From NCBI RefSeq assembly GCF_042433085.1, contig NZ_JBHLWA010000049.1, forward strand, positions 91,603-123,602: 32,000 nt of DNA. The letters run 5' to 3'. A program made the translations under genes and the position numbers. This stretch comes from Gallibacterium melopsittaci. Its GTDB lineage: Bacteria > Pseudomonadota > Gammaproteobacteria > Enterobacterales > Pasteurellaceae. Shown here piece by piece: positions 30,226-31,140 of this stretch; positions within the stretch are counted from its first letter, which is position 1, and each line of letters starts with the position of its first letter. Below the pieces are notes generated by a model, which worked only from the letters and a program-made list of their open reading frames with translations, was not told the DNA's origin and ran no database searches.

Positions 30226-31140
30226 CTTCCTTCTCCGCTTTGGTTAATTAAATAATCATTTAATTTTTCTAACATTCTTTTTTGTAATTCATTTGGGCTA
30301 ACAATCGTTAAATGCGGAATCCAATATTGCACAATCGGTAAAATATCTAATTCATTAACCTCTTTGCAGGAGAGTAATAATTCACCTGACTCTAATTTGT
30401 GTAATAACGTTTGATTCGGTAATAAATTACGGCGTAAAAAGAAATTGGCGGCAAAGTCTGATACTCGAATCACTACTTCAGGAAGCTGATTACCATAAGA
30501 AAGGGAGTCATTCTGTTTTATTTCGTCAATAAATTTTTGGTTTGGAATATAGGTTTCTGCTAATACACGTAAATTACTGATTTGCGAAAAACAGAATGTT
30601 TTTTGTTTATGATTGTCGAGTTGGTCGGTCGCAATTAAATACCAAATGCCATTTTTATTTGTTAGGGAATAAGGCGATACTTGATAAAATTTGGGGTGTG
30701 CTGAATGCACCTTTTTATATTTAAATGAAATATTTTTTCGTTGGTTAATCGCCTCTTTTAATTGCTCAAATTGTTCTGTTAGACCACTAATATTTTCATA
30801 TTGTATGCCTTTAACTTGTACCGATTGTGTGAGTTTTTCTTGATAGAAGGCTTTATCTACTGATGGAAATAAATCAGAAATACTGGCAAAAAGCGCAAAA
30901 CGTTGAATATCTTCTTCAGTTAAAACATCTATTTTGTTTTGGCTTAATTTATAAAAGCGAGGACCTTTTTCTTCCCAAGGAAGAAAGGCTAAGCGTTGGT
31001 TAATATCACGTTGGATAGTTCTACTTGATACATTGAATTGTTCTGCTAACTCGACAGAATCAATTCTCCCCCCCCCCCTCATGGTTCAGGAGAGATAAAA
31101 TAGCACTTAAACGTTGTGCGAGTGGGATATGTTTTTTCAT
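30222..31140 (-). CDS. WYL-domain transcriptional regulator (N-terminal HTH), 5' end frameshifted at a G11 tract
   Basis: The 286-aa ORF contains the HTH remnant (ELAEQFNVSSRTIQRDI) and a WYL motif (NGIWYLIA). The ATG at 31140 opens MKKHIPLAQRLSAILSLLNHEGGG..., which would join in frame with ...RIDSVELAEQF if the tract were G10 or G13. As it stands, that frame stops at a TGA (31060-31062). Confidence 0.8.
31068..31078 (-). repeat. Homopolymeric tract: C11 on the plus strand, G11 on the coding strand
   Basis: Direct count gives 11 consecutive C at 31068-31078, located at codons 21-25 of the WYL regulator gene. Confidence 0.95.

Follow-up and report, generated by a model that had tools for sequence, protein, structure and literature searches.

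A guanine tract near the start of a Gallibacterium WYL regulator gene as a probable phase-variable switch of a dynamin/HerA-type island

WYL-domain regulators (BrxR, CapW, DdaA, and DriD) have been emerging as the main sensors that switch on immune and DNA-damage modules, and so far they have been treated as purely signal-driven. DdaA of the Moraxellaceae is an activator of DNA-damage and anti-phage genes that consists of a winged helix-turn-helix (wHTH), a WYL, and a WCX domain, and its motif, CGWCA-N5-TGWCG, precedes the start sites by about 50 bp (Song et al., NAR 2025, PMC12392091). The same study reported that the basal DdaA lineages are self-regulated and control neighbouring genes, and that BrxR and CapW belong to a clade separate from DdaA and DriD. 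DriD of Caulobacter and PafBC of the Actinobacteria are WYL activators that sense single-stranded DNA (ssDNA). BrxR and CapW, known from defence islands such as BREX and CBASS, share the domain order of DdaA; according to published accounts, they head conflict-type operons and bind inverted repeats in their promoters. Among regulators of other kinds, mga of group A Streptococcus and bvgS of Bordetella pertussis are switched through poly-C tracts, according to references cited in PMC11868660. Here, a stretch of 32,000 nucleotides (nt) from Gallibacterium melopsittaci (contig NZ_JBHLWA010000049.1; the whole stretch is called the window) was found to carry a wHTH-WYL-WCX regulator gene, the first gene of a co-directional operon of about 10 kb, whose 5' coding region is thrown out of frame by a run of 11 G (Table 1). 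With a probability of roughly 0.6, this G11 tract acts as a hypermutable, reversible ON/OFF switch of the regulator, as judged from the comparison of sequences described below.

Translation of the minus strand revealed that the frame opened at ATG 31140, whose product begins with MKKHIPLAQRLSAILSLLNHEGGGEN, encodes helix α1 and the α1/α2 loop of the winged HTH, and that the tract occupies codons 22-25 of 305. The remaining open reading frame (ORF) of 286 codons covers α2, the recognition helix, the wing, the three-helix linker, WYL, and WCX; its frame is closed by a TGA two codons upstream of ATG 31082, and its product of 286 amino acids (aa) is identical to the NCBI protein WP_382375963.1 of G. 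melopsittaci. The start codon, the tract, the stop codon, and the long ORF from ATG 31082 had been described in an initial annotation of this DNA and were all confirmed by translation. The regulator, which had been placed at the head of the operon, proved to be real and, apart from the tract, intact. Tracts of G10 and G13 restore the frame, as had been stated, with products of 305 and 306 aa instead of the 306 and 307 aa first given; G9, G11, and G12 are out of frame. The missing Shine-Dalgarno sequence at ATG 31082, which had been used as an argument, was uninformative, since ATG 31140 has no recognisable one either. The window has a G+C content of 35.9%, and apart from G11 none of the G/C runs in its 32 kb exceeds 6. 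About 6e-4 G/C runs of at least 11 were expected in the window by chance, under an independent, identically distributed model and a first-order model alike, and an origin of the tract by chance alone was rejected. A G/C homopolymer of about 8-9 or more was taken as hypermutable, which includes G11, and GGAGGCGGT would be a recoded, non-slippery, in-frame (ON) form of the G10 tract.

In Pfam, the repaired protein showed a complete wHTH-WYL-WCX architecture (HTH_11 at residues 10-47, WYL at 123-192, and WCX at 220-295), and therefore the DNA-binding domain spans the frameshift. In the AlphaFold2 model of the intact 306-aa relative P0003 (predicted local distance difference test score 82), α1 was formed by residues 7-19 and the following loop by residues 20-26 (HEGGGNR), which are encoded by the tract; α2 (29-36), the recognition helix (40-50), the wing, and three helices (76-133) came next, followed by WYL and WCX. 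Among 120 homologues, the loop was usually LNxGxR[IVL]D, two residues shorter than in the tract-bearing clade, and the Gly-rich insertion of two residues was confined to the clade of G. melopsittaci, its sister species Gallibacterium trehalosifermentans, and the Logan contig L002. On the basis of the model, a product begun at ATG 31082 would be without helix α1 of the wHTH. This bears on the idea that the frameshift is bypassed, either because slippage of the RNA polymerase or the ribosome by +1 or -1 gives some full-length regulator at a low dose, or because the product of ATG 31082 is functional itself. A homopolymer of 11-12 is generally known to permit realignment in any register, and the long ORF shares its frame with ATG 31082, from which the product annotated by NCBI is read. 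However, neither a stimulatory structure nor a conserved slippery context was found at the tract, the G12 allele of the sister species would need the opposite shift and has no in-frame ATG, and the tetranucleotide repeat of the Haemophilus orthologues cannot be bypassed in this manner. Together with the predicted loss of α1, these findings make a bypass very improbable.

A comparison of tract length in relatives, which had been proposed initially, was possible for three sequences from different species: the window with G11, G. trehalosifermentans with G12, and L002 with GGGAGGGGGG, an interrupted tract that is in frame. In G. trehalosifermentans CCM 7539 (assembly GCA_042433055.1, contig L001), the G12 run lies at the same site and is likewise out of frame; the NCBI annotation gives a 275-aa fragment at this locus. 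L002 (82% identity) has an intact 306-aa ORF, and its GGGAGGGGGG is one synonymous GGA-to-GGG change away from G10, the in-frame length; therefore, we infer that G10 was probably the ancestor of G11 and G12. The G. trehalosifermentans protein P0002 was 98% identical to the window regulator. Between the two repaired genes, 34 synonymous and 7 nonsynonymous differences were counted, which gave a synonymous divergence (dS) of 0.21 and a ratio of nonsynonymous to synonymous divergence (dN/dS) of 0.046. The 21 codons upstream of the tract contained 3 synonymous and 0 nonsynonymous differences, and no further stops or frameshifts were present within the 286 codons in either Gallibacterium species. 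The dN/dS between the window and L002 was 0.10. Because dN/dS was low on both sides of the tract, the two halves are evidently maintained as one gene, and the divergence pattern indicates that they are still constrained as one coding sequence. An old pseudogene was ruled out by the dN/dS of 0.046 on both tract sides, which leaves reversible switching, a very recent loss, or a miscounted homopolymer.

Several points weigh against reversible switching in the window. The difference between G11 and G12 lies between species and not within one population, with one assembly of G. melopsittaci analysed, and the tract-bearing clade was represented by just three sequences in the databases searched. When the 108-aa ORF that follows the regulator gene and the 286-aa ORF were looked up by exact sequence, no other contig matched, and a scan of metagenome DNA with a degenerate pattern of 36 nt designed on the 5' end of the gene returned no further copies or tract alleles. 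A scan of the genome collection recovered the sister species and not the genome of the window itself. The persistence of an uninterrupted tract across a dS of 0.21 was statistically unremarkable, with about three synonymous sites involved. In addition, both frameshifted Gallibacterium genomes apparently came from one sequencing project, judging by their neighbouring accession series, and a shared homopolymer bias is conceivable. If the true tract were G10 or G13, the regulator would be intact and the frameshift would be an artefact of sequencing or assembly. Runs of 11-12 G are the hardest sequence class to size, and outside the tract the gene is undamaged and evolves under purifying selection, as for a functional gene. 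Even so, a miscount is unlikely, because it would require different errors, +1 and +2, in two independent assemblies. The assembler named for the G. trehalosifermentans assembly is 'platanus', which we take to mean short reads; with such data, the consensus length is usually that of the major allele. No other homopolymer frameshift was found in the genes of the window or of L001, and the ORFs of 1723, 1491, 1023, and 781 aa were intact despite runs of A7-A8 and T7. Moreover, a true G10 would still be hypermutable, so that a miscount would remove the OFF call for this strain and not the switch.

A different repeat was found at the same end of the gene in Haemophilus. Two clusters of Haemophilus orthologues (56-58% identity) start with TNKQ repeats, and the DNA behind these is (CAAA)n directly after the start codon. 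In orthologues of the H. parahaemolyticus type, the context is ATGaATG(CAAA)n with two out-of-frame ATGs. Contingency loci classically switch by slippage in G/C homopolymers and tetranucleotide repeats, and a tetranucleotide repeat just after the start codon is the classical Haemophilus design. In the cluster of the H. parahaemolyticus type, the full-length members of 301, 304, and 317 aa differed only in the number of TNKQ units, and many members were annotated as truncated proteins of 111, 163, or 182 aa, which were found on 24, 20, 8, 4, and 2 contigs, including an NCTC genome. The regulators of this type head operons of 2-3 dynamin-like GTPases, the cargo class of the window. In public assemblies overall, n ranged from 3 to 12, and ON and OFF alleles were both present. 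The gene is in frame from the first ATG when n = 1 mod 3 and from the second ATG when n = 2 mod 3, and it is OFF when n = 0 mod 3. At 20 OFF loci (n = 3, 6, 9, or 12), one unit more or fewer restored an ORF of 297-313 aa in every case. No simple sequence repeat (SSR) was found at the 5' end in the other 22 distinct species-representative loci, with L003, the sister-species locus, set aside. The (CAAA)n repeat was gained independently of the poly-G tract of Gallibacterium. As read from the assembled alleles, the Haemophilus loci provide direct population-level evidence that SSR-mediated ON/OFF switching acts on this regulator family, and by analogy they support a switch in the window without proving it. 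The phase-variable switch suggested in the initial annotation was thus borne out comparatively by the G12 of the sister species, the purifying selection, and the Haemophilus (CAAA)n alleles, and switching in this strain is probable.

The first dynamin-like gene behind the Haemophilus regulators was broken into two pieces, of 208 and 372 aa, at three of the four n = 3 loci (L030, L035, and L037) and was intact in all 16 loci with n = 6-12. The n = 3 alleles are expected to be the least mutable, and the split may reflect decay of the cargo after the switch had been locked OFF, or a clonal effect. The split fits activator and repressor models alike and was not used to choose between them. It does show that decay occurs in the family, which is relevant to a non-adaptive explanation of the window allele. 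In such a case, the GGA-to-GGG change would have created a G10 hotspot by chance, and the regulator would be a young pseudogene whose switching has no biological role, with recent, separate losses in the two species or while the type strains were passaged in the laboratory. Both known alleles with an uninterrupted tract are OFF, and the downstream cargo is evidently replaceable, as the window and L001 have only the regulator and the 108-aa ORF in common. We regard this explanation as quite unlikely in view of the dN/dS of 0.046 over a dS of 0.21 with no relaxation on either side of the tract, the lack of further stops or frameshifts in the 286 codons of either species, and the independent gain, by the Haemophilus orthologue, of another type of SSR at its 5' end, where the gene is ON from two starts and OFF alleles can be restored by one unit. 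An independent SSR with restorable OFF alleles is the usual signature of a selected contingency locus.

The direction of control was assessed from the promoter and the fold. The palindrome CGACA-N5-TGTCG upstream of the regulator gene occurred as a single copy in the window, where about 0.29 matches were expected by chance at one mismatch or fewer. It was found in this analysis first, and its identity with the DdaA site was recognised afterwards from the literature; it is an exact match to the published DdaA motif (PMC12392091), and the DriD site CGAC-N7-GTCG is contained in it. Orthologous genes were preceded by the motif at comparable distances in L001, in L002, in all 20 H. parahaemolyticus loci, and in three Neisseria loci. 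It was also found upstream of the orthologue in G. anatis, Avibacterium, and Phocoenobacter, for a total of at least six genera, and several further loci had it with one mismatch. A scan flagged the palindrome as terminator-like; this role was set aside because the half-sites are invariant across genera and match the published operator. The 22-nt gap between the palindrome and the -10-like hexamer (Table 1) also precedes TACATT in the H. parahaemolyticus loci. No -35 element was found at any of 10 aligned promoters, and a strict sigma-70 scan gave no promoter on the strand of the gene. With the start site deduced from the -10-like hexamer, the motif would lie at about -49 to -35, and the regulator presumably binds it there.

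Structural comparison using Foldseek gave DriD (4e-13) and PafBC (4e-11) as the best matches of the regulator, with BrxR and CapW behind at 1e-7, although DriD and PafBC shared only 15-21% sequence identity with it. A phmmer search of the PDB gave weak PafBC-type matches only and no BrxR or CapW match at E <= 1. NCBIfam held no model for the regulator or for the small ORFs. In DdaA, the first ssDNA-contact arginine of the WYL β4 strand is replaced by alanine (PMC12392091). In an alignment to PafB-type chains, the arginine of GRWYL was an isoleucine in the window protein (GIWYL) and the arginines of TFRLSRI were absent (TFCFSQI); these positions may correspond to the residue described for DdaA. 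Since the motif is that of the activator DdaA, no -35 element is present, and the fold is nearest to DriD and PafBC, the OFF state most likely means a lack of induction: in regulator-OFF cells, the operon probably cannot be induced, rather than being derepressed. The loss of repression considered in the initial annotation is therefore probably the wrong direction, and a self-activating regulator is favoured over a repressor at roughly two to one.

The opposite sign would follow if the switch were real and the regulator a repressor of the BrxR/CapW type, in which case cells with G11 or G12 would express the operon constitutively. The domain order and the position at the head of a conflict-type operon are shared with BrxR and CapW, which have been described as repressors of defence operons, and with a repressor the outcome would reverse. 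By position, as a wHTH-WYL-WCX protein at the head of a loosely defence-like cargo, the regulator resembles BrxR and CapW, but it does not cluster with them by sequence or structure (phmmer on the PDB; Foldseek 1e-7 versus 1e-13 to 1e-10). The PADLOC WYL models matched the regulator at E 6e-27, the palindrome covers the -35 position, at which a repressor might act as well, and OFF alleles outnumber ON alleles among the Haemophilus contigs on record. The assignment to the DdaA clade, moreover, is suggested by the predicted fold and not by phylogeny. Nevertheless, we consider a repressor somewhat unlikely. The candidate operator has exactly the motif of the activator DdaA, and homologues bind this motif as well, the one from Haemophilus influenzae in an electrophoretic mobility shift assay (PMC12392091). 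The -35 element was absent at 10 of 10 aligned promoters, the fold is nearer to DriD and PafBC, and the predicted helices 76-133 can be read as the three-helix bundle of DriD and DdaA (Song et al.). The phmmer result and the polarity of an early stop, which would work against derepression, point the same way.

With an activator, the switch could work as follows. Slipped-strand mispairing would alter the length of the G run in the α1/α2 loop of a self-regulated DdaA/DriD-like regulator. In the ON state, G10 or G13 would give the full 305- or 306-aa regulator; in the OFF state, translation would stop after 26 codons with G11, as in the window, or after about 50 with G12, as in the sister species. 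The regulator gene is the first in the operon and the palindromic site sits where the -35 element should be, so ON cells could activate the regulator gene and the genes downstream: the 108-aa ORF, the dynamin-like GTPases, the HerA-like ATPase, and possibly the nuclease. The inducing signal would probably be DNA damage or ssDNA. In OFF cells, the operon would stay at a basal level, and the polarity of the early stop over 835 untranslated nt may lower its expression further.

The locus shares features with each of the known systems and differs from each. Like DdaA, the regulator is a wHTH-WYL-WCX protein, and CGACACACCCTGTCG lies about 49-35 nt upstream of the inferred start in the window, compared with about 50 bp for the DdaA motif. 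It heads its own operon, and the basal DdaA lineages are self-regulated with neighbouring targets. It differs in that the protein has 305 aa instead of 335 aa, that it would be a local and not a global regulator, and that its ORF contains a hypermutable tract, a feature with no mention in PMC12392091; its place in the DdaA clade and its activator role are putative. DriD and PafBC are alike in their three helices between HTH and WYL and unlike in that they control DNA-damage regulons, and we know of no SSR switching for either of them. BrxR and CapW differ as repressors of a separate clade with a weaker fold match, no sequence match, and different published operators. With mga and bvgS, the locus shares a G/C homopolymer within a regulator coding sequence, where slippage reportedly shifts the frame and toggles a whole regulon; there the regulons concern virulence, whereas here a WYL-type sensor with a dynamin-like/HerA-like island would be subject to putative switching. 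Phase-variable methyltransferases (mod) control regulons in Haemophilus and Actinobacillus according to published accounts, and these phasevarions likewise place several genes under one switch. Unlike mod and the Haemophilus contingency loci, the gene concerned here is a DNA-binding regulator and not a methyltransferase or a surface-structure enzyme, and the window uses a mononucleotide tract in the HTH loop. The cargo, with its two Dynamin_N GTPases and a DUF87/HerA-type ATPase, recalls Eleos (LeoA/LeoBC) and HerA-associated defence, but the gene set differs from that of Eleos and the matches are weak (LeoBC 6e-9 and LeoA 1e-8).

The mechanism is thus familiar, and its target, a WYL regulator, is new. 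Literature searches yielded no work on WYL regulators that are phase-variable, on SSRs of Gallibacterium, on tetranucleotide repeats of H. parahaemolyticus, or on dynamin in combination with WYL. A phase-variable WYL regulator of a conflict system had been called unusual in the initial annotation; phase-variable regulators as such have precedent in the poly-C tracts of mga and bvgS. We tentatively propose, as a possibility that falls short of even odds, that Pasteurellaceae have at least twice independently put a hypermutable repeat at the 5' end of a self-activating DdaA-like WYL gene, poly-G in Gallibacterium and (CAAA)n in Haemophilus, and so made the inducibility of an island stochastic and heritable. 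This would amount to a 'defence phasevarion' run by a transcription factor instead of a methyltransferase. The stochastic trait would be the inducibility of a damage- or phage-responsive island of dynamin-like GTPases, a HerA-like ATPase, and a nuclease, and not the effector itself. Island expression would then be bimodal and heritable within clonal populations, and a population would hedge between bearing and sparing the cost of an inducible immune or stress module, which bears on how the costs of defence are shared across a population. Measurements of phage susceptibility would be affected, since a single genome would misreport this trait. Annotation would be affected as well, as NCBI now calls truncated proteins of 286, 275, 182, and 111 aa at such loci. 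The Haemophilus (CAAA)n alleles in public metagenomes would offer a ready natural system in which regulator switching could be followed against phage or host pressure, and they also hint at the function of the uncharacterised dynamin-like operons.

Table 1. Features of the regulator locus. Positions refer to the window unless a contig is named.
Feature	Position	Strand	Remarks
Poly-C run of six (C6, followed by T) between cmoB and the regulator gene	31326..31331	-	G6 on the + strand; C10 in G. trehalosifermentans, C9 in L002
Palindrome CGACA-CACCC-TGTCG (CGACACACCCTGTCG), candidate operator	31207..31221	.	67-81 nt upstream of ATG 31140
-10-like hexamer TAAACT	31179..31184	-	22-nt gap to the palindrome upstream; usable -35 element absent
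5' reading frame of the regulator	31060..31140	-	ATG 31140, 26 codons, then TGA 31062-31060 as codon 27 (by translation)
G11 homopolymer	31068..31078	-	C11 on the + strand; exactly 11; encodes the Gly3 loop
Remaining 286-codon ORF, begins MRGGGRIDSVELAEQF	30222..31082	-	+1 frame relative to ATG 31140
108-aa ORF	29899..30225	-	ATG overlaps the regulator stop (ATGA); conserved partner
Cargo genes	20949..29867	-	137 aa, dynamin-like GTPase 335 aa, 135 aa, dynamin-like GTPase 781 aa, then 290 aa, HerA/FtsK-like ATPase 1023 aa, 205 aa
NS_2-type endonuclease	20728-19742	-	After a 220-nt gap behind the cargo genes
(CAAA)n examples	L026 474-510; L027 2367-2393; L028-L047, e.g. L028 2583-2609

The cargo genes behind the regulator are closely packed, with spacings of 9-92 nt. 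Pfam identified Dynamin_N in the 335- and 781-aa proteins, DUF87/HerA, and Endonuclea_NS_2. In PADLOC, HerA and mad8 were also matched, the Leo matches of the 335-aa protein were far below the NCBIfam cut-offs, and the 781-aa dynamin-like protein had no match. A defence role of the cargo is plausible. No domain was found for the 108- and 137-aa ORFs in Pfam, NCBIfam, or PADLOC. These two ORFs (29899-30225 and 29454-29867) are paralogues with a common C-terminal motif, CRVYTxNR...IAAHN...NPD[YF]EI...V.Y, and a Gly/Ala-rich hydrophobic stretch. An ORF of 106-112 aa followed the regulator gene in L001, L002, G. anatis, and Glaesserella.

The island is flanked by cmoB on one side and, on the other, by a PP-loop ATPase gene that neighbours mukFEB; an insertion sequence (IS) marks its end. 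At the same site, the sister species carries the same regulator and 108-aa ORF in front of a wholly different cargo. The window and L001 are homologous as far as about 30 nt beyond the 108-aa ORF (29868-31998 versus L001 9052-11178), with the far flank at 16922-17790 of the window and 19962-20828 of L001. The same layout of a regulator, a small ORF, and a variable cargo was seen in G. anatis and Glaesserella. The cmoB/PP-loop site looks like a hotspot at which cargo is swapped behind a conserved head of regulator and 108-aa ORF, as far as these alignments indicate. At the far end of the island, window positions 17801-18112 (tandem units 17972-18108) hold a 1.9-unit remnant of a gene family with 72-nt repeats found in L001, apparently cut by an IS element of the rve family at 18151-19191.

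In L001, three extra exact palindromes were located (16472-16486, 17952-17966, and 19164-19178), about 100-145 nt upstream of downstream island genes and each 22 nt before TACACT. The genes behind them encode two proteins of 72-nt (24-aa) tandem repeats and one tubulin-like protein, and the regulator seems, from this arrangement, to control a small regulon in G. trehalosifermentans. The poly-C run in the spacer between cmoB and the regulator gene is a second homopolymer of variable length; the ATG lies about 185 nt and the palindrome about 105 nt downstream of it. The run has A-runs on its flanks, is long in L001 (9718-9727) and L002 (468-476), and is short and interrupted in the window; it may modulate an upstream promoter.

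The Psychrobacter homologues retrieved (44-47% identity) were local regulators of 297-306 aa beside a GTPase and not the global 335-aa DdaA. In Psychrobacter cibarius (L016 5977-9098), for example, the homologue is followed by a 699-aa P-loop GTPase-like protein. The pairing of regulator and GTPase thus reaches beyond the Pasteurellaceae, with a changed operator, as the palindrome was absent upstream of most Psychrobacter homologues. Elsewhere in the window, downstream of mukFEB and unrelated to the regulator finding, positions 3759-8930 encode a 1723-aa autotransporter with a C-terminal β-domain.

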